Assembly: GCA_963709385.1 (NCBI GenBank)
Contig: CAVPWD010000012.1
Span: 336,989 to 400,988 of the forward strand
Length of the DNA stretch: 64,000 nt
Origin: an uncultured Acidobacteriaceae bacterium
Lineage (GTDB): Bacteria; Acidobacteriota; Terriglobia; Terriglobales; Acidobacteriaceae
Reading direction: 5' to 3'
The notes below the pieces were generated by a model. That model saw nothing but the letters and a program-made list of their open reading frames with translations. It did no database searches and was not told the DNA's origin. Both the position numbers and the translations under genes were made by a program. Of the stretch, positions 12,929-49,481 are shown piece by piece (the first letter of the stretch is position 1; every line of letters starts with the position of its first letter).

Positions 12929-13061
12929 GGTCTTAGGTCCTGGGTATTAGGTCTTATGCATTCCGCCGCGAACTCGGATCTCCCGACAGCAGGGCCAAGA
13001 CCTAAGACCCAAGACCTGATTCCCACTACTCCTGCTCAAGACCAAAGACCCAACACCCAAA
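12929..13061. repeat. inverted arrays of degenerate heptamers (GGTCTTA-type / AAGACCT-type)
   Basis: GGTCTTA GGTCCTG GGTATTA GGTCTTA at 12929-12955, then ~42 nt, then AAGACCT AAGACCC AAGACC at 12998-17 and CAAGACC AAAGACC CAACACC at 13037-61. Intergenic. Confidence 0.7.
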
Positions 13062-27188: not shown

Positions 27189-27540
27189 TCGACCGGCACA
27201 ATCTTGACTAGCTATTGTCAAGTCCACTTTCGTAGGTATAAAACGTCCTCGAAAGTAGACGTTTCTTCCACAGCCTAACCCGTTGCATCTGCACCTGCGC
27301 CGAATCCCTCACTCGTCGAATCAATTACTTATGAAAGGCAAATCCGCCGATTTCCACAGTGTTCCCGTAGGAACACTTCGCTCTCCAGACGCCAATGCCG
27401 GCCCACGTCTCACGCTTTCCTTCGTGCACCTTCGTGCCCTTCGTGGTGATCGCCTTTGTTCAACGTCAAACCCGCGCTGAGTCCTCCGCGTTGACGACGC
27501 CCGTCATCCACCCTAAGATTGAGGCTCCCAACCTTGCAAC

Positions 27541-27596
27541 CAAGCATGATCAACCAAGCATGATCAACCAAGCATGATCAACCAGGCATGATCAAC
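27541..27596 (+). repeat. 14-bp tandem repeat x4 (CAAGCATGATCAAC) containing the kinase start codon
   Basis: Three perfect copies plus one copy with a single A-to-G change. Each copy carries ATG and GATC. The last ATG (27588) starts the kinase ORF. Confidence 0.9.
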
Positions 27597-29585
27597 CAGA
27601 CCATCTCGCACTACCGCATCACTGGCCGCGTGGGCAGCGGCGGGATGGGCGTCGTCTACGAAGCGGAAGACCTCAACCTGGGCCGCAAGGTCGCGTTGAA
27701 ATTTCTCCCGCCGCTCCTCTCGCGCGACCAGAACGCTCTCGACCGTTTTATGCTGGAGGCGCGCACCGCCTCGGCGCTGAATCACCCTAACATCTGTACG
27801 ATCTACGCGGTCGAAAAATCAGGCGACGGTGCGGACGCGCAGTCCTTCATCGCGATGGAACTGCTCGATGGCCAGAACCTCGATCAGAAGCTCTACTCCG
27901 GCCCGCTTCCGACCGGCCCGTTACTCGATATCGCGATTCAGCTGGCCGACGCGCTCGACGCCGCGCACGCCAAGGGAATCATTCACCGCGACATCAAACC
28001 GGCAAACATTTTTCTCACCGCGCGCGGTCAGGTGAAGGTGCTGGATTTCGGTTTGGCCAAGCTGTCTCGCCCCGAAATGCAGATGGAAACCATCGGCGCG
28101 ACGCAGGACTCGCCCAGCCCGAACCTCACTAGCCCCGGCGCAACCGTGGGCACCATCGCCTACATGTCGCCCGAACAAGCGCGGGGCGAAGAACTCGACA
28201 CACGTTCTGACCTGTTCTCCTTGGGCACTGTGATTTACCAGATGGCCACGGGCAAGCAGCCCTTCGCGGGCGCGACCTCGGCGGTGGTGTTTCACGCCAT
28301 TCTCGAACTCGATCCGCCCTCTGCGCTGCAACTGAATGCGACGCTCCCGCCCAAACTGCAGGAGATTATTGAGAAGCTTCTGGAGAAAGATCACGACCTG
28401 CGTTACCAATCGGCCGCCGATCTGCGCGGCGACTTGAAGCGCCTGAAGCGTGACACCGAGTCGGGAAGAAAAACCGCGGCGTCGTCCTCCGCTTCAACGT
28501 CGACTCCGGCTGCGGCCGTCCCGTCGTCGGCAGCGGGCGTTTCGGCTACCGTTGCCGCGACCCGAGCGTCTTCGGGCTCTGCCGTGGTTGCGGCGGCAGG
28601 ACGACACAAGCTGGGAACCAGTTTGACCGTCGCTCTTGGCATCGTCGTACTGCTGGCGGCGGGTTATGGAATCTATTCGCTGCTGCTGACGCACCGTCGC
28701 ATGCGGCCGTTCCGCAACTTCTCCGCCACCAAGGTGACAGAGGAGGGCAACGTGGTCTTTGCGGCGGTGTCGCCCGACGGCAAGTACATCCTCAGTCTGA
28801 TACGGGACAGAGGTCTGGCCAGCCTCTTGCTGCGCAACGTGCCCACCAACAGCGTGACCCAGGTGCAGCCACCGGCCGAGGTCTACTACGGCGGGCTGCG
28901 GTTCGCTCCCGACGGGAACTATTTTTATTTTGTGCGCAGCGATCCTGGACCGGCGCCTGACCTGAAGTTTCTGTATCGCGCGCCGTTGTTGGGCGGCACT
29001 CCAGAAAAGCTGGCCGAAGACGTGGATTCAAACATCACGTTTTCCCCGGATGGCCGCAGGCTAGCCTTCATGCGTTACGACAACCCCGAGCCAGGTAAGT
29101 ACCAGCTGATCGTGCGTTCTGTCGATCAGGGAGTGGAGAAGGTGTTGACCAGCGGTCCGGCGGGTCAGGGACTCAGCGCTCCCGCGTGGTCGCCCGACGG
29201 CAAGACGATTTTGTGCCTCGCCACCCAGCCGGGGACTGCCCTTACCGGGCTCATGGCAGTGGACGCAAACACCGGCCTGCAGCGCCTGGTGATGAGTTCC
29301 GGCGACGCTTTAGGATTGCCGACATGGATGCCCGACGGCAGCGGCTTGCTCGCTCTCGACAGCGATCGCACGAGCAATTACACGCGGGCGCAGATCGTTT
29401 TTGTGTCGTATCCCGATGGCTGGGTGAATCCGGTCACCCGCGACACCAACAATTATTCCGATCTCAGTCTGGCGGCCAATGGCCAGCTACTGGCCACCGT
29501 GCTCAGCGAGGGGCGCTGGAATCTGGCGGTGATGTCGACGGCCAGCGCCGGGGCTGACGTGCGTGCCGATCGGACCGGTGGTTAA
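27588..29585 (+). CDS. Ser/Thr protein kinase with TM segment and TolB-like beta-propeller, part 1
   Basis: Hanks kinase motifs ([38 protein letters not shown]), then a TM helix and WD40-like beta-propeller repeats (SPDGK, APDGN, SPDGR). Confidence 0.85.
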
Positions 29586-37001: not shown

Positions 37002-37147
37002 GTCGTTGGTCGTTCGTCGTTGGCCGTTAGCCAAACACTTTCAGTGTTCGTGAAAATCCCCACGTCTCGCAAAGGACGCTAGACATGGGGCACCCAGCCG
37101 TTGGTTTGCCAACGACCAACGACCGACGACCAACGACCTGTGACCAG
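37002..37147. repeat. composite element: inverted GTCGTTG-type heptamer arrays flanking a REP hairpin
   Basis: GTCGTTG GTCGTTC GTCGTTG GCCGTTA (37003-30), then AACACTTTCAGTGTT, then the AAAATCCCCACGTCTCGCAAAGGACGCTAGACATGGGGCACCC unit (37053-95), then CCAACGA CCAACGA CCGACGA CCAACGA (37109-36). Confidence 0.75.
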
Positions 37148-37161
37148 TTTACAATCGGCGC

Positions 37162-38613
37162 GTGAATCTGGACGACACCATTGTCGCGATTGCCACACCC
37201 ACAGGGCGGGGAGGGATTGGAGTGGTGCGGCTGGCGGGACCTGCGGCGCGAGAGATCGTTGCGCCTATGCTGCGGCTGCGGCATGAACTGGAGGCGGGGC
37301 GGGCGGTGTTGGGGGAGTTGGTTGAGCCGGAGGTTTCCGCTTCAGTGCAAGAAGTCAAAATCCCCACCCCTTCGGCAAGCTCAGGGCAGGCTCTCTTTCG
37401 CGAAGAACGCGAAAGAAGGATGGGGCACCCGCAGCATCGGATCGACGAGGTGGTCGTCACTTATTTTTCCAAGCCACATTCTTATACGACCGACGACATT
37501 GTCGAAATTTCGGCGCATGGGGCGCCGGTGGTGTTGCGGCATATTGTGGAGCTTTGCGTGGCGGCGGGGGCGCGGCTGGCGGAGCCGGGCGAGTTCACCA
37601 TGCGTGCGTTTCTGAACGGGCGCATCGATCTTACGCAGGCGGAGGCGGTGCGCGATCTGATCGATTCGCAGACGTTGTATCAGGCGAAAGTCGCGGCGCA
37701 GCAACTGGAAGGCGCGCTGTCGCGGCGGTTGCAGCCGATCAAGAAAACGCTGGTGGAGCTGATTGCGGTGCTCGAAGCCGGGATTGATTTTGCCGAAGAC
37801 GACGTGTTGGTGATGGCGGACGCCGCGATTCTTGATCACATTGCTTCCGTTCGTAAACCCCTAGAGCAGCTGAACGCCACATTTGCTTACGGCAAGATCG
37901 TGCATGAAGGCTTGACTCTGGCAATTGTGGGGCGGCCGAACGTTGGGAAGTCGAGCCTGTTTAACCGGTTGGTGGAGCGGGAACGGGTGATCGTCACCGC
38001 GACTCCGGGGACCACGCGCGATTTGGTGAGCGAGACGGTCGCGATTGGCGGGATCCCGGTCAAGCTGATCGACACAGCCGGCATTCGCGAGGCGCTCGAT
38101 GAGGCGGAGTCGATCGGGATTCGCAAATCAAAGGAGGCGCTGGCCGACGCAGACCTGGTGTTGGTCGTGCTCGACGCATCGCAACCGGAGACGGCGGACG
38201 ATGCGGAACTGCAGCGGCTGGCTGAGGGCCGGCCGGCGATTGTCGTGGGAAACAAGTGCGACTTGGGAAGCAGTGGACAGTGGACAGGGGCCAGTGGTCA
38301 GAAGGTTCTTACTTCAGCGATCACTGGCGCGGGCATGGCCGAACTTCGCGAAGCCATTCTGCGACACATTGGTGGTGAGGCGGGAGCGCCGGCGGAGTCT
38401 GGTTTTCTGACCAGCGTTCGCCATCAGGGATTGATCAACGATTCGATGGCTGCGCTGGATGCGGCAAAGGTTGCGGTGACGGGGAAGATTCCGCACGAGA
38501 TGCTGCTGCTCGATCTTTACAACGCGCTGCGGCCGCTGGATGCGATCACGGGGGCGACTACCACAGACGATATTCTGAATTTGATTTTCAGCACGTTCTG
38601 CATCGGGAAATAG
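37162..38613 (+). CDS. mnmE: tRNA modification GTPase MnmE
   Basis: N-terminal [20 protein letters not shown] domain [18 protein letters not shown] and NKCD. C-terminal CIGK. Confidence 0.95.
37357..37430 (+). repeat. REP-like hairpin element embedded in frame in mnmE
   Basis: AAAATCCCCACC...CTTTCGCG-AAGAA-CGCGAAAG...GGATGGGGCACCC has the same termini as the intergenic units at 37053-95 and 42334-76. It encodes [25 protein letters not shown]. Confidence 0.65.
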
Positions 38614-39872: not shown

Positions 39873-39907
39873 AGCTATCAGCTATCAGCTATCAGCTGTC
39901 AGCTATA
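39873..39907. repeat. heptamer tandem repeat (AGCTATC)x3 + AGCTGTC + AGCTATA
   Basis: Read directly from the sequence, 19 nt upstream of the ruvA start in the divergent intergenic region. Confidence 0.85.
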
Positions 39908-40003
39908 AACTGTGAGCAAATGAGTCCACGAAAAACCCGGAAATCAGCTCGGCTAGAAGGTCGCGATGGACAGCGTTTCCGGGCACTCTTAGAATCTCTT
40001 CGC

Positions 40004-43488: not shown

Positions 43489-43494
43489 CTTTTC

Positions 43495-43615
43495 TCCGCG
43501 ATCTTCGCGGATTTCCTTCGCGACCTCTGCGGGTAAGAGCTTTTCGCTAGCCTGCGGAAAAAGCGTTTAACCGCAGAGGCCGCGAAGAAAGGCCGCAGAG
43601 GTCGCAGAGAGGGGC
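43495..43615. repeat. REP-like mosaic (CCGCAGAGG/CGCGAAG units) between convergent genes
   Basis: Long imperfect hairpin: CCTTCGCGACCTCTGCGG (43515-32) pairs with CCGCAGAGGCCGCGAAGA (43571-88), plus a direct repeat GGCCGCAGAGGTCGCAGAG. Related CTTCGTG units occur at 27416-27447. Confidence 0.55.
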
Positions 43616-43620
43616 AACGG

Positions 43621-45675
43621 CTAGAGTGCGGCGGCTTGCTCGCGCCGGCGAGCCTGAATTTCGACATAGACGTTCACCAACGACACCGCTGCCGGGGTCA
43701 CTCCTGGGATGCGCGAGGCCTGGCCCAGCGTGCGCGGTTGCACTTTGCTGAGCTTTTCCTGCATTTCGCGCGAGAGGCCGCTGACGGAGCGGTAGTCGAA
43801 CCATTCGGGGATGGCATGCTGCTCGGACTTTTTCAGGCGCTCCATGGCGCGCTGCTGCTGCAGCAGGTAGCCTGCGTACTTGATCTCGGTTTCGACGGAT
43901 TTCAGTTCGTTTCTTACTTCCGACGAGATCTTCACCACAGGGGAGAACCTTGCGAAGAAATCCGGGGTGAGCTCTCGCAGGACCGGCAGCAGTCGCTCGA
44001 TTGCGATTTCCGGGCGCTTTAGCAACTGACCCAGCGTTTGTCCGAGGGCAGACGACAGGTCGGCAGTTGGGGCGCCGCCGGCGACAGCAGGTTCCTCACC
44101 CTCGCTTCGCGAGAGTTCGGAATGACAAGACGCCAATATTTCGGCGGTGATCCGAGTGGTCTCCAACAACTTCTTCAGCTTCTCCAGCCGCTGCTGCTTC
44201 GCCTGAAAATCTTCCCAGGCTTCATCATGAATGAGCCCGACGCGGCGGCCGTGGGGAGTGAGGCGGCGGTCGGCGTTGTCGATGCGGAGGTGCAGACGGA
44301 ACTCGGCGCGCGACGTGAACATGCGGTAAGGCTCGTTCGTGCCCTTCGAAATCAGGTCGTCGATCAGGATCGCGGTGTATGCTTCGGTTCGGTCGAGAAT
44401 CAGCGGCGGTTGTTGCTTTACTTGCTGCGCGGCGTTGATGCCGGCCATCAATCCCTGGCACGCGGCTTCTTCGTAGCCGGACGTCCCGTTGATCTGGCCC
44501 GCGAGGAACAGGTTCGCGATCTTGCGGGTTTCGAGCGTGCGCTCCAGTTCCGTTGGATCGATCGAGTCGTATTCGATGGCGTAGCCCGGCCGCAGCATTT
44601 CGGCGTTCTCAAGCCCGGGGATCGACTTCAGAATCGCCATCTGCACTTCGACCGGGAGGGAGGTGCTCATACCGTTAACGTAAATCTCGTGCGTGTTCAG
44701 GCCTTCGGGCTCGAGGAAAAGCTGGTGCGTCTCCTTGTCGGGAAATTTCACGATCTTGTCTTCGATCGAGGGACAGTAGCGCGGGCCGATCGACTGAATC
44801 TGGCCGCTGTACATGGGCGAGCGATGCACGTTCTCGCGAATGATGCGGTGTGTCTCGGCCGTGGTGTAGGCGATGTAGCAGGGCACTTGTGAGTCGTGAT
44901 GCGCGACGCGCTTCGTTCGAAAACTGAACGGAGTGGGATCGGCGTCGCCCGGCTGCTCCGCGAAGCGCGACCAGTCGATGCTGCGTCCATCCAAGCGCGG
45001 CGGAGTGCCGGTCTTGAGCCGGCAGCCGCGCAGGCCCAACTTTTTCAGCGCTTCGCCGAGCAGGACGGCGGCGGGTTCGCCGGAACGTCCGGCAGGATAT
45101 TGTTGCTCGCCGCAGTGGATGAGGCCGTTCAGGAACGTTCCGGTCGTGATGATGACGGCTTGCGCGCCCACGGTGCGGCCGTCGCGAAGGCGAATGCCGA
45201 GAACCCGGCGTCGGTCGTTGGTCGTTAGTCGTTGGTCGTTAGCAAAAGCGTCGCCATCCTGCGGGTCGGCCAACGACGAACGACCAACGACTAACGACTC
45301 GACTTCCGCCTGCTTGATCTTCAGATTCGGCTGCGACTCCAGCACTTCGCGCATTTTCAGGCGGTAGGCCTGCTTGTCGCATTGGGCGCGCGGCGACCAG
45401 ACGGCGGGGCCGCGCGACGTATTGAGCAGACGAAACTGGATGCCGACCGCGTCGGTGATTTCGCCCATGATGCCGCCGAGGGCGTCTACTTCGCGGACCA
45501 GGTGTCCTTTGGCAATGCCGCCGACGGCGGGGTTGCACGACATCTGCGCAATCAGATCGACGTTGAGCGTGTAGAGCGCGGTCTTCAGGCCCATGCGCGC
45601 GGCGGCCATGGAAGCTTCGCATCCAGCATGGCCGGCGCCGACCACGACTACGTCGAATTGTTCGGTGAATTGCAT
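43621..45675 (-). CDS. mnmG: tRNA uridine 5-carboxymethylaminomethyl modification enzyme MnmG (GidA)
   Basis: [18 protein letters not shown] motif, then [24 protein letters not shown] and the C-terminal [13 protein letters not shown]. Confidence 0.95.
44091..44135 (-). repeat. REP-like element (GTCATTCCGAAC family) embedded in frame in mnmG
   Basis: The coding strand reads TGGCGTCTTGTCATTCCGAACTCTCGCGAAGCGAGGGTGAGGAAC and encodes [14 protein letters not shown]. It matches the intergenic copies at 56559-97 and 7773-7804. Confidence 0.6.
45213..45298. repeat. inverted GGTCGTT / CCAACGA heptamer arrays embedded in frame in mnmG
   Basis: GGTCGTT GGTCGTT AGTCGTT GGTCGTT, then a 27-nt loop, then CCAACGA CGAACGA CCAACGA CTAACGA. 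Confidence 0.8.
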
Positions 45676-47561: not shown

Positions 47562-47683
47562 TAAATCACGTAGCCCGGACGCATGATCCAGCGGCACGCT
47601 TTTGACTTCCGAGCGGGCGCTCGTTGCGCGGACGAAGGCGTCGGCCGCTCCACGGCGATTGCGGTTGCTACAATCGCAATCGG

Positions 47684-48895
47684 ATGTCGCTGCAATTTCA
47701 GATTGAAAAGACTGCCGGCTCTGCCCGCCTCGGGCGCCTGATCACGGCGCATGCGGTGATCGAGACGCCGGTGTTTATGCCGGTCGGGACCGTGGCGTCG
47801 GTCAAGGGCGTGTCTCAGGACATTCTGGAAGAACTGGGCGCGCAGATTATTCTCGGCAATACCTATCACCTCTACCTGCGGCCCGGCATCGATACGGTGC
47901 GGAAGATGGGCGGGCTGCATGGGTTCATGGCGTGGCGGCGGGCGATCCTGACGGACTCCGGCGGGTTCCAGGTCTTCAGCCTCAACGAACTGCGCAAGGT
48001 CAGCGAAGAGGGCGTGACGTTTCGTTCGCACCTGGATGGGTCTTCTCACTTCTTCAGCCCGGAGAGCGCGATGCAGGCGCAGATCGGGCTGGGCGCCGAC
48101 ATCATCATGGCGTTCGATGAATGCACGGAGTATCCGGCGGATCGCGCGCGGATGCGGGATTCCATGGAGATGACCGCGCGCTGGGCGGCGCGCAGCAAGA
48201 AATATTTCGAAGAGCATAAGCATGAAGTGCCGTGGAACCAGGGGCTAGGGGCCAGTGGCCAGGGATCAGGAGATCAGGGGCCAGAGGCTCCGGCTAATCC
48301 CTTGCCCCTAGCCCCTAGCCCCTCGACCCAATCTCTCTTCGGCATCGTGCAGGGCGGGATGGATCGCGAGTTGCGAAGAGAGTCCGCCGAGCGGACGGTT
48401 GAAATCGGATTTCCCGGCTATGCAATTGGCGGACTCAGCGTGGGTGAGCCGCGCGAGCTTACGCGCGAGATGGTCGAATCCACGCTGGAGCACCTTCCCT
48501 CGGACAAGCCACGTTATGTGATGGGCGTGGGTACGCCGGAAGAAATTGTCGAGTATGCCAGCCTGGGCGTGGACATGATGGATTGCGTCCTGCCGACGCG
48601 GGCGGCGCGGCACGGGCTGCTGTTTACGTCGGAGGGCAAGGTTTCGATCAAGCAAGCGCGCTACGCCCAGGATGCGGGGCCGCTCGACCCGAATTGCTCC
48701 TGCCGGGTGTGCCATCGCTATTCGCGAGCATATTTACGTCATCTCTATGCTTCTAATGAAGTTCTGGCGCAGGTCCTGAACACGATCCACAACCTGAGTT
48801 TCTACCTTGACACTATGCGGCGGGTGCGGCATTCTATCTCACTTGGGGAAGAGGCTCGTTTTCTTTCGAGTGTATGGTCTCTACCGAAACCGTAG
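47684..48895 (+). CDS. tgt: queuine tRNA-ribosyltransferase
   Basis: ORF 47624..48895; ATG at 47684. Motifs TPVFMPVGT, LTDSGGFQVFS and GYAIGGLSVGEP, plus zinc site CSCRVC...H. Confidence 0.95.
   Translation: MSLQFQIEKTAGSARLGRLITAHAVIETPVFMPVGTVASVKGVSQDILEELGAQIILGNTYHLYLRPGIDTVRKMGGLHGFMAWRRAILTDSGGFQVFSLNELRKVSEEGVTFRSHLDGSSHFFSPESAMQAQIGLGADIIMAFDECTEYPADRARMRDSMEMTARWAARSKKYFEEHKHEVPWNQGLGASGQGSGDQGPEAPANPLPLAPSPSTQSLFGIVQGGMDRELRRESAERTVEIGFPGYAIGGLSVGEPRELTREMVESTLEHLPSDKPRYVMGVGTPEEIVEYASLGVDMMDCVLPTRAARHGLLFTSEGKVSIKQARYAQDAGPLDPNCSCRVCHRYSRAYLRHLYASNEVLAQVLNTIHNLSFYLDTMRRVRHSISLGEEARFLSSVWSLPKP
48241..48323. repeat. inverted GGGGCYA / TAGCCCC heptamer arrays embedded in frame in tgt
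   Basis: GGGGCTA GGGGCCA GTGGCCA GGGATCA GGAGATCA GGGGCCA ... TAATCCC TTGCCCC TAGCCCC TAGCCCC. Confidence 0.75.
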
Positions 48896-49388: not shown

Positions 49389-49481
49389 CAGTTGCCAGCG
49401 GCCGGTTGTCAGTTGCCAGTGTTTGGCCAACGGCAGCTCATGGTTGTGACTGGCAACTGGCAACAGACAACTGGCAACTGG
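49389..49481. repeat. inverted CAGTTGC / TGGCAAC heptamer arrays in the yajC-secD gap
   Basis: CAGTTGC CAGCGGC CGGTTGT CAGTTGC CAGTG, then a 26-nt loop, then GAC TGGCAAC TGGCAAC AGACAAC TGGCAAC TGG. Confidence 0.8.

Follow-up and report, generated by a model that had tools for sequence, protein, structure and literature searches.

An in-frame inverted heptamer array in mnmG of an uncultured acidobacterium is probably a tolerated, translated copy of a genome-wide repeat population

In this work, we analysed a stretch of 64,000 nt of DNA from an uncultured Acidobacteriaceae bacterium (the window), in which the tRNA-modification gene mnmG carries in frame a period-7 element at positions 45209-45298, in which two runs of about four GTCGTTN units each, inverted relative to one another, flank a 27-nt spacer. 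The host reading frame is full length and encodes a protein whose closest orthologue is 97% identical. The gene and the parts of the element are as follows, with the arms named according to the coding strand:

43621..45675, minus strand: mnmG, the host ORF, 684 aa, full length, matching E. coli MnmG structures with E = 2e-192
45270..45298, minus strand: 5' arm, four GTCGTTN units, translated, with the native DLIVE codons overwritten
45243..45269, minus strand: spacer or loop, 27 nt, translating to about DPQDGDAF
45209..45242, minus strand: 3' arm, about four NAACGAC units, translated

The original prediction of a heptamer hairpin in mnmG is borne out by reading of the sequence, by Tandem Repeats Finder and by comparison with shuffles. 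Tandem Repeats Finder reports one array at 45209-45240 with 4.6 copies of the unit CGTTGGT, which is a rotation of GTCGTTG, and a second one at 45270-298 with 4.1 copies of CCAACGA. The pattern GTCGTTNGTCGTTNGTCGTT, allowing up to two mismatches, has nine matches in the window, all of them within 37002-37137 or 45207-45298, and none in 100 dinucleotide-preserving shuffles. That the hairpin was called near-perfect is justified only in a staggered register, since the arms are complementary to 87% over 30 nt and reach 100% over 20 nt once the register is shifted by one unit. Folding of the RNA of 45195-45315 (minus strand) yields -60.7 kcal/mol with z = -4.8, a value equalled by none of 200 shuffles. 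No target-site duplication was seen at the element junctions, and neither a transposase nor defined element termini were found; the region within 10 kb to each side contains ordinary housekeeping genes, with no RAYT gene among them, and Rfam gave zero family matches across the whole window.

In the alignment to E. coli MnmG structures, the extra residues of the host protein fall into the gap between VEDLIVE and RVVGAVT, at the ND turn of the E. coli protein between two strands. This turn comprises only 4-9 residues in E. coli, in other solved MnmG and in many Acidobacteriaceae, as expected if the segment is an insertion and not a conserved part of MnmG. The earlier estimate of about 25 extra codons was right in regarding the insert as in frame, while the size needs adjustment: the element spans about 30 codons, about 5-6 native codons are overwritten (DLIVE to SLVV), and the net gain is 22 residues compared to the empty-site orthologue P0120. 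As judged from alignment and modelling, the insertion site coincides with a beta-hairpin turn of the FAD domain; a surface loop is predicted there, the exposure of which is deduced from alignment and secondary structure. AlphaFold renders the insert as a low-confidence coil between the predicted strands E125-131 and E157-163; this model is poor (mean pLDDT 43), was built on a shallow alignment of 34 sequences that are all at least 86% identical, and was rejected as input for a fold search.

Further heptamer arrays are found in the same window:

37002..37138: sister element of the GTCGTTG unit family, intergenic, upstream of mnmE, arms at 37002-37028 and 37109-37138
48238..48329, plus strand: inverted heptamer-array hairpin (CCAGGGG-type / CCCCTAG) in tgt (47624..48895), in frame, giving NQGLGASGQGSGDQGPEAPANPLPLAPSPS
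38271..38301, plus strand: single CAGTGGA array of 4.4 copies in mnmE, in frame and translated
49389..49481: inverted heptamer pair CAGTTGC / GCAACTG, intergenic between a yajC-like and a secD-like gene, found by Tandem Repeats Finder and by eye
39873..39917, plus strand: single AGCTATC array upstream of ruvA
12995..13060, plus strand: two direct CAAGACC-type arrays, intergenic

The element before mnmE does belong to the same family as the one in mnmG, as had been proposed: one arm shares a 25-nt identical run and the other 31 of 34 bases. The loops of the two are unrelated, that of the sister element measuring 80-84 nt and holding a different small palindrome. Three inverted pairs in the window are strict, and the fourth (49389-49481) is clear by eye and from Tandem Repeats Finder. 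Three of the nine window elements lie in frame in conserved enzymes (mnmG, tgt and mnmE). This division into coding and non-coding copies was made by hand for the window elements; GC3-based gene calling for all 179 arrays of the wider search described below was dropped, as antisense frames score alike at 60% G+C. Several of these sites are variable in relatives as well. The tgt site is a second hot spot, the yajC-secD site shows three unit families, and the AGCTATC array upstream of ruvA is a CTAAGAC/CCAAGAC array in the 97% relative, whose nucleotide identity is 95%. The CAAGACC-type unit family of 12995..13060 also fills the ruvA-upstream site in the relatives L081 and L202.

Among 120 orthologues, the length of MnmG varies in three places only, and the mnmG site is an insertion hot spot: across the 78 species loci measured its length ranges from 12 to 297 nt, and in 54 of them it amounts to 60-297 nt. 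At least seven unit families occupy the site, and many of the inserts are inverted heptamer arrays. These differing units agree with the expectation that DNA repeats, and not protein conservation, shape the segment. Where two species are 92-96% identical over the flanking 340-aa block, they have the unit family in common in only 17% of cases, and none of the three pairs above 96% shares it. The same mnmG unit occurs elsewhere in the same locus in 12 cases versus 2.35 expected, a number reached in none of 5000 permutations; in L025 and L013, tgt and mnmG hold the same unit. Such same-unit copies within one genome share their arms and have unrelated loops. In the 97% relative, the mnmG element has identical architecture and equal unit numbers, with four substitutions that all lie in the two arms. 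Compensatory arm changes in this closest relative were considered and rejected, as the four substitutions do not restore pairing. No fresh insertion of this class distinguishes the window from this relative, all heptamer hairpins being common to both, with one replacement elsewhere. Some mnmG-site copies have unequal units in their two arms (L027, L030) and others a single arm (L019, L026), forms which a simple palindromic transposon does not predict.

For 17 of 70 in-frame arrays, a perfect consensus repeat would give an in-frame stop, and in all 17 the triplet is changed, mostly from TGA to CGA, with out-of-frame TGAs retained. Since the stop triplets are mutated in every one of these arrays, we infer from sequence constraints that the insert is translated, in line with the earlier claim that the mnmG frame is kept open. 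In all 84 species loci examined (L001-L081, L202-L204) mnmG is free of frameshifts; this includes the three loci missed by the search pattern (L008, L016, L076), in which the gene is intact. Presence/absence variation is found in the orthologue alignment, where the close orthologue P0120 (L202) reads GAG AGT TCG CGC only at the site; this 6-nt scar is consistent with the excision of an AGTTCTC/GAGAACT hairpin. As the P0120 orthologue retains just this scar, the insert can be regarded as dispensable. When the 54 mnmG-site inserts were folded, 19 had z below -3 and 28 folded no better than shuffles, and since about half of them no longer fold, the hairpin structure is not conserved. On this sequence evidence the mnmG insert appears tolerated and translated rather than useful.

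In 1.49 Mb, we counted 179 period-7 arrays compared to 2 in shuffles, with 22 arrays of period 8 and 10 of period 9, and 30 strict inverted pairs. The density of arrays changes with MnmG identity, from about 18-20 (17.9) per 100 kb at an identity of at least 80% to about 1 (1.4) below 70%, and covers 0 to 20 per 100 kb across Terriglobales, so that the arrays are strongly enriched in the Candidatus Sulfotelmatobacter-like clade, to which the host organism belongs, and low in distant Acidobacteriaceae. The 1.49 Mb hold 71 unit families, 41 of which contain CAG/CTG (23% expected); of the pairs, 15 have CAG in the 5' arm and one has CTG there. Strong arm polarity and recurrence at fixed sites could reflect function or dedicated synthesis rather than neutral spread. 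In a metagenome scan with (GTCGTTG)3, in which partner detection was too strict for reliable pair statistics, plain arrays were found in many phyla at a G+C content of 37 to 74%, and the GTCGTTG unit is therefore not lineage-specific. A listing of host proteins by an idealised array-peptide search was discarded, as it returned only ORFs below 100 aa from many phyla, which are likely spurious.

The comparison to Rickettsia palindromic elements (RPE; Ogata et al. 2000, summarised in PMC3733652), drawn in the original prediction, holds as an analogy and not as membership. Both are palindromic non-coding repeats lying in frame in housekeeping genes, tRNA-modification genes included, and both are translated and tolerated in permissive parts of proteins. 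The mnmG element is palindromic and in frame in a functional gene as RPE are; a whole-element consensus is lacking, since RPE copies are summarised there as having a conserved body of ~100-150 bp, whereas heptamer copies share arrays only. In addition, the host of RPE is obligate intracellular according to the same summary and the heptamer-array host is a free-living soil/peat acidobacterium, and, unlike with RPE, different unit families come to occupy the same sites again. To call the element selfish is likewise an interpretation, as neither a mobilising enzyme nor a footprint of transposition was found.

Heptamer repeats occur in other phyla, and inverted heptamer arrays are already known from Xanthomonas, where convergent GGGAATC arrays were described in a study that also covers G-rich heptamers in Nostoc (Rehm et al. 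2015, PMC4692102). The Xanthomonas arrays, too, consist of 7-nt units in tandem, as a rule about four to an array, and are scattered across the genome, they form 70-75 convergent inverted pairs per genome with possible stem-loops, the G-rich arm lies 5' on each strand, and length and sequence differ between close relatives at conserved positions (PMC4692102). Dispersed arrays of about four tandem units, close convergent pairs and a corresponding polarity are all found here. The differences lie in the units and their placement: Xanthomonas has essentially one unit with G-quadruplex potential, whereas here dozens coexist, and GTCGTTG has no G-tracts and thus falls outside the G-quadruplex class, the tgt copy (CCAGGGG) being the only G-rich one in the window. 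Furthermore, 7-11% of the Xanthomonas arrays are intragenic (PMC4692102), compared to three of nine window elements in frame here, and the stop-avoidance and hot-spot turnover that we see are not described for Xanthomonas (PMC4692102). REP/REPIN, which are mobilised by RAYT, resemble the present arrays as short repeats in inverted hairpin doublets, with genome-specific families and occasional in-frame copies in ORFs (PMC3116915, PMC3733652), and Acidobacteria encode RAYT-like (TIRYT) transposases (PMC3733652). Inverted hairpin doublets in many copies are indeed present here. However, a REP is a single 20-40-bp imperfect palindrome with a GTAG or CGTC tag, while the arms here are tandem heptamer arrays without internal palindrome and without GTAG, CGTC occurring at one outer element boundary only (45209-45212), and the spacer is not conserved, unlike in REPIN; nor did a RAYT gene show up close to any of the copies. 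Assignment as a MITE does not fit either, as the arms act as inverted repeats, yet there is no target-site duplication and the internal sequence is not conserved.

A different type of heptamer array is represented by neuO of E. coli K1, which reportedly contains a perfect, copy-number-variable heptanucleotide array acting as an on/off switch. As in neuO, the coding arrays here are read in three frames to give a 7-residue peptide repeat; unlike in neuO, they are short and imperfect, come as inverted pairs and have a stable copy number between close relatives. Neither unit-number variation in the 97% relative nor out-of-frame alleles in the 84 species loci were found. Cyanobacterial STRR are heptamer repeats as well, and many of their units, like those of the TAACTGA type, have a CAGT/ACTG core, as do many units here. 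The TAACTGA repeats of Beggiatoaceae, Cyanobacteria and Bacteroidetes (PMC4679880) and STRR also resemble our case in having several heptamer units per genome, but these arrays are mostly direct and intergenic, in contrast to the inverted pairs and in-frame copies that are frequent here; in BOGUAY, one set out of 170 is inverted (PMC4679880).

We consider it probable that the mnmG insert is a tolerated, translated, DNA-level repeat that undergoes concerted evolution across the genome. The segment would then be one copy of a genome-wide heptamer-array population in Sulfotelmatobacter-like Acidobacteria, with each arm being a short tandem array of one 7-nt unit. As the arms are inverted, a long hairpin can form in either DNA strand or in the RNA, and as three units make up 21 nt, translation passes through all three frames of the array one after another, GTCGTTG giving VVGRWSL and CAACGAC giving QRPTTND. 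The outcome in MnmG would be a low-complexity loop of about 25 residues, transcribed and translated with the gene, on which selection may act only by keeping the total length a multiple of three and by removing in-frame stops, and loss of the element would leave the gene undestroyed. Units are most likely homogenised within an arm via replication slippage, the likeness of the two arms may stem from a palindromic origin or from template switching within the palindrome, and the likeness across loci may result from copying, either via REPIN/MITE-like mobilisation in trans or via ectopic gene conversion. Hairpin sites would be re-occupied repeatedly while old hairpins decay, so orthologous sites come to differ in units between species.

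This reading has to be weighed against local simple-sequence-repeat growth, in which a native 7-mer would be duplicated by slippage and copied in inverted orientation with no movement or exchange between loci. It would account for a fixed site with changing units and for the 3' array running seamlessly into native V/I-x-G codons in L033, L080 and L025, and heptamer repeats are over-represented in many bacteria, which PMC4692102, citing Mrazek 2007, attributes to polymerase slippage. We nevertheless judge it unlikely, as the similarity of units to native flanks is not significant overall in a permutation test (P about 0.1-0.17), other loci of the same genome carry the same unit with variant units in the same order, genomes with the same native flanks have unrelated units, and two genomes with 95% nucleotide identity differ in that one array has been swapped for one of an unrelated unit. 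A functional nucleic-acid structure, i.e. an mRNA hairpin, DNA cruciform or protein-binding array under selection with the coding effect being secondary, is quite improbable; its role could lie in mRNA stability, in ribosome pausing or in regulation. Hairpins with complementary arms do recur at the same sites with different sequences in a covariation-like manner, the arm polarity is consistent (15 to 1), and intergenic copies lie just upstream of genes or between operon genes, but palindromes that are born complementary mimic covariation, and the 28 inserts that fold no better than shuffles, the several one-armed or mismatched copies, the empty site in P0120 and most Acidobacteriaceae and the lack of any Rfam match in the window all speak against a selected fold.

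Regarding the protein, the extra 22-30 residues might confer a lineage-specific MnmG function, for example a contact to MnmE, tRNA or another partner, and the presence of an insert in most of about 200 clade orthologues of an enzyme that works in a complex fits this idea. We regard it as very unlikely, though, since the peptide is hypervariable in sequence and in length (from 4 to about 100 residues), the DNA unit read in three frames determines its residues, its amino-acid changes among relatives track the seventh, degenerate position of the unit, each of the four differences from the 97% relative is non-synonymous, and P0120 has lost the insert. Equally hard to credit is a phase-variation switch, by which gain or loss of one 7-nt unit would frameshift mnmG, mnmE and tgt and turn tRNA modification reversibly on and off: although seven is not a multiple of three, in-frame arrays occur in three tRNA-modification genes of one window and heptanucleotide phase variation is already known as a type (PMC13001214), the arrays are short (about four units) and broken by variant units, with the identical copy numbers and uniformly unshifted frames given above. 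An assembly or sequencing artefact, finally, may be dismissed almost entirely; repeats and palindromes can be mis-assembled and 49 of 120 metagenome contigs stop inside such arrays, but in-frame inserts at this same site are present in more than 150 independent assemblies (NCBI, ENA, JGI), contigs of 0.8-4 Mb included, and the closest relative combines the identical architecture with its own four substitutions.

A further mechanism, which we put forward as a rather improbable one, is that the arrays, rather than being transposed, are newly made at sites of recurrent breaks or hairpins through templated addition of 7-nt units. The activity behind this would be akin to a telomerase, a reverse transcriptase or a primase-polymerase, would use genome-specific templates and would extend both 3' ends of a break. 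If true, it would explain the strict period of 7 together with the inverted arrangement, the constant polarity 5'-(CAGNNNN)n...(NNNNCTG)n-3' that both strands show (15 to 1), the repeated use of the same sites by new units, the genome-wide sharing of units despite unrelated loops and the occasional elements with different units in their two arms, and the heptamer repeats with a CAGT core in cyanobacteria and Beggiatoaceae would be explained by it too.

With the mnmG insert being probably a translated passenger that evolves in concert with other copies in the genome, in-frame translated repeat DNA in core enzymes would not be confined to reduced intracellular genomes such as that of Rickettsia, and such inserts occur frequently in free-living Acidobacteria of peat and soil, which are an abundant group. 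For annotation, they inflate and diversify protein loops, break assemblies and create spurious small ORFs, and they can mislead alignment-based and model-based annotation. The fixed hot spots in mnmG, tgt and yajC-secD, at which one unit family takes the place of another from species to species, allow an unusually clean comparison for the old question of why 7-nt repeats accumulate in bacteria, helped by the strict arm polarity and the probable concerted evolution of copies within a genome, and given the range of array densities within Terriglobales, phylogenetic profiling could reveal the responsible enzyme.

The element in mnmG at window positions 45209-45298 consists of GTCGGTCGTTGGTCGTTAGTCGTTGGTCGTTAG, a 27-nt spacer and CCAACGACGAACGACCAACGACTAACGAC, and Tandem Repeats Finder detected period-7 arrays at 45209-45240 (4.6 copies) and 45270-45298 (4.1 copies). 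It lies in frame in an ORF of 684 aa on the minus strand (43621..45675), assigned to MnmG with E = 2e-192 against E. coli MnmG structures, in which the extra residues align to a gap between VEDLIVE and RVVGAVT. These data confirm the originally predicted heptamer arrays with a 27-nt loop in the mnmG reading frame. The predicted near-perfect hairpin was retained only in part, since the arms are 100% complementary over 20 nt if staggered by one unit and 87% complementary over 30 nt otherwise. RNA of the coding strand folds with -60.7 kcal/mol (z = -4.8). A three-unit pattern with at most 2 mismatches matched nine times in the window, always at this element or at 37002-37137, and never in 100 shuffles. 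The element is an insertion at a permissive turn.

MnmG of the window is best matched by proteins from MAGs that carry the names Candidatus Sulfotelmatobacter or Acidobacteriia. Besides the unit in mnmG, the window (G+C ~60%) carries the period-7 units CAGTGGA, AGCTATC, CCAGGGG/CCCCTAG, CAGTTGC/GCAACTG and CAAGACC. Arrays were counted in the window and 80 species-level loci of relatives, 1.49 Mb in total, with at least 3 copies and at most 2 mismatches required for period 7.

Tandem arrays in the window and 80 loci of relatives
Period-7 arrays: 179 in 1.49 Mb
Period-7 arrays, shuffled sequence: 2
Period-8 arrays: 22 in 1.49 Mb
Period-9 arrays: 10 in 1.49 Mb
Array density, loci with MnmG at least 80% identical to that of the window: 17.9 per 100 kb
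Array density, loci with MnmG below 70% identity: 1.4 per 100 kb
Array density, four cultured-strain loci: 0
Array density, window: 20.3 per 100 kb

Heptamer repeats are a lineage-specific expansion. The top-scoring tandem repeat of the window has a 14-nt unit (CAACCAAGCATGAT; 27537-27598, 4.4 copies, 97% identity) and lies near an ORF start at ~27564.

Nearly all of 120 aligned MnmG orthologues (84-97% identical) carry extra residues at exactly the same place, and MnmG length varies at three places only (~aa 130-160, 516-540 and 576-580). The insert peptides of these orthologues are different heptamers translated in three frames, such as ...ANDQRPTTND from GTCGTTG/CAACGAC and SSQLSAVSS...TENRELRTENS from AGTTCTC/GAGAACT. 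Many Sulfotelmatobacter-like species have inverted heptamer arrays at this site, with units including GTCGTTG, GGCTTCG/GGCTTCC, AGTTCTC, GTACCGA/GTACCCA, CAGTCGT, CAGCACT and CAGTTGT, and some inserts are nested (L054, L011, L055, L014, L042) or combined with small palindromes of other kinds. A segment of equal length in relatives, with conserved protein sequence and no DNA repeat, would have spoken against an inserted element; we observed many units instead, and lengths of 12-297 nt in the DNA of 80 loci, with a baseline turn of 4-9 residues (e.g. L056, L023, L038, L045, L048). Where the flanking 340-aa block was 92-96% identical between two species, these had a unit family at the site in common in only 17% of cases; above 96%, none of the three pairs did. 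Judged from these comparisons, unit turnover is fast, and the site is a hot spot at which insertion recurs and units change. L081, the closest relative, is 97% identical in MnmG at the amino-acid level and 95% identical in nucleotide sequence over 22 kb; its insert matches that of the window in length and shows four substitutions, each within the arrays and each non-synonymous.

The presence/absence polymorphism sought among orthologues was found in P0120 (671 aa), where the insert present in nearly all others is reduced to a six-base remnant. This protein reads DLIVESSRRIL, encoded in locus L202 by GAG AGT TCG CGC CGC, which can be derived from an AGTTCTC/GAGAACT hairpin (ESS|QLS...TEN|SRR) by an excision leaving six bases. 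Since the P0120 gene is otherwise intact, the insert is dispensable.

Further elements were observed within mnmG. Loci L040 (10001-12244) and L033 (10001-12094) carry a further heptamer hairpin in the variable C-terminal part of mnmG (~aa 516-580, window numbering), with a unit the same as or close to that of the first site, and at the first site of L040 a duplicated AELIVEE, possibly a target-site duplication, flanks an RTGHP-type element. In L204 (6448-6478, mnmG of P0003) a 31-nt mini-palindrome, GTTCTTAGCCCGCCCTGAGCAGGGCGAAGGG, encodes FLARPEQGEG and is nested in the 3' heptamer array; it also occurs in proteins P0029 and P0066, and no further copy was found in the sequences examined.

Since successive heptamers of an array are read in different frames, all three in turn, a stop triplet in the unit, in any phase, should truncate the protein every third unit. 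The perfect consensus unit predicts an in-frame stop in 17 of 70 in-frame arrays at the mnmG site, and the triplet is altered in all 17 (mostly TGA to CGA; also TAG to TCG, TTG, TGG or GAG, and TAA to TTA), while identical triplets out of frame are kept intact in adjoining units. No frameshifted mnmG was found among 84 species loci (L001-L081, L202-L204). Altered stops in frame, together with intact reading frames, are what purifying selection leaves on translated sequence, and they argue against excision of the segment ahead of translation; the codon pattern indicates that the insert is translated. Among 54 inserts of at least 60 nt compared with shuffles, 19 fold far better (z < -3), 7 are intermediate and 28 fold no better. 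Several inserts have a single arm, or arms with different units (L019, L026, L027, L030). Hairpin structure is not conserved at this site, and the hairpins look as if they originate as palindromes and then decay.

Within the window, the elements were distributed as follows.

Elements of the window inside and outside ORFs
In frame in genes, 3: mnmG, tgt and mnmE
48238-48329: inverted hairpin CCAGGGG/CCCCTAG in frame in tgt (47624..48895), directly before LFGIVQGG
CAGTGGA array: in frame in mnmE
Intergenic, 5: 37002, 49389, 39873, 12995 and 47080
Ambiguous, 1: 1589

This count, which covers the window out of the whole genome originally proposed, gives an under-representation of intragenic copies (~90% of the window is coding), as would follow from loss of most insertions into genes. 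In relatives, the tgt site (after HKHEVPW, before TQSLFGIVQGG) ranges from 26 residues, the baseline with no insert, up to 98; it is a second hypervariable hot spot with several element families. In the yajC-secD spacer, four related genomes have inverted heptamer hairpins that belong to three unit families. The intergenic site upstream of ruvA holds (AGCTATC)n in the window (39873-39917) and (CTAAGAC/CCAAGAC)n in L081 (15700-15760) and L202 (11867-11899), the unit of L081 being found also at window 12995-13060; an array was replaced here between genomes of 95% nucleotide identity. In mnmE (37162..38613, plus strand), a 75-nt in-frame segment of a different, small palindromic family (37349-37423) is absent from L081, and in-frame repeat insertion in the clade is not restricted to heptamer arrays.

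This mnmE segment is a presence/absence polymorphism between the window and L081, and its RMGHP-type palindrome is also part of the 37002-37138 loop and of the L202 insert in tgt. A palindromic element of 132 nt directly follows the mnmG stop, at ~43491-43620 (arms GACCTCTGCGG / CCGCAGAGGTC, with 9-mers of the CCGCAGAGG type). L081 lacks it and has the next gene abutting mnmG. Related peptides of the PRRHGGAEK type are encoded in frame in L036, L044 and L046, at the mnmG site. Further small palindromic families are in frame at the mnmG site (L001, L009, L028, L061, L019, L021, L055, L068, L014) and at the tgt site (L003, L009, L013, L021, L034), with the peptide signatures VGTGAPPVQ..ERS, HPERSEG..AVEGP, REGHDFSRAE and HVGTAA.GC...AELRSAGQP.AAVPT.

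The intergenic element upstream of mnmE (37002-37138) belongs, as predicted, to the same heptamer family as the one in mnmG. Their 5' arms share a 25-nt identical run, variant-unit order included, and their 3' arms agree in 31 of 34 bases, five of which lie within the loop boundary, and the loops (80 nt and 27 nt in mnmG) are unrelated. Likewise, mnmG and tgt both carry GTACCCA arrays in L025 and GGCTTCC arrays in L013. The mnmG-site unit was found again in its own ~22-kb locus 12 times against 2.35 expected with permuted loci, a value reached in 0 of 5000 permutations. Copies in one genome are, by these measures, alike. Simple local duplication fails to explain unit identity, since units are not significantly similar to native flanking codons. 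We infer that mobilisation or gene conversion carries units from one locus to another, and that the mnmG copy is a passenger without benefit.

CAG/CTG occurs in 41 of 71 unit families (58%, 23% expected). In the inverted pairs of the window and L001-L080, the 5' arm has CAG in 15, CTG in 1 and neither in 10, a bias that implies the arrangement 5'-(CAGNNNN)n...(NNNNCTG)n-3' on both strands. GTCGTTG lacks CAG, yet obeys the rule of a G+T-rich 5' arm. Cyanobacterial STRR units have a CAGT/ACTG core, as do TAACTGA repeats, and a CAG/CTG core is enriched in the acidobacterial units too.

Heptanucleotide arrays in the coding region of neuO form a phase-variation switch. Over-representation of heptamer simple sequence repeats has been described in bacteria (PMC4692102). 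A Xanthomonas genome contains 70-75 pairs of GGGAATC arrays in convergent inverted orientation, of which 7-11% are intragenic; both strands have the G-rich unit, a polarity as in the acidobacterial pairs (PMC4692102); the mnmG element looks like such an inverted heptamer array. TAACTGA arrays are known from Beggiatoaceae, Cyanobacteria and Bacteroidetes (PMC4679880). There are documented cases of REPs within ORFs and of in-frame RPEs, and Acidobacteria encode RAYT-like transposases (PMC3733652). The proposed resemblance to RPEs holds in that the mnmG element also acts as a tolerated, translated palindromic repeat; it fails the defining features of RPEs, and equally those of REPINs, MITEs and phase-variable VNTRs. 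Our searches of the literature gave no description of in-frame heptamer hairpins for Acidobacteria. The fixed, conserved hot spots offer a place to study the unexplained origin of bacterial heptamer repeats.
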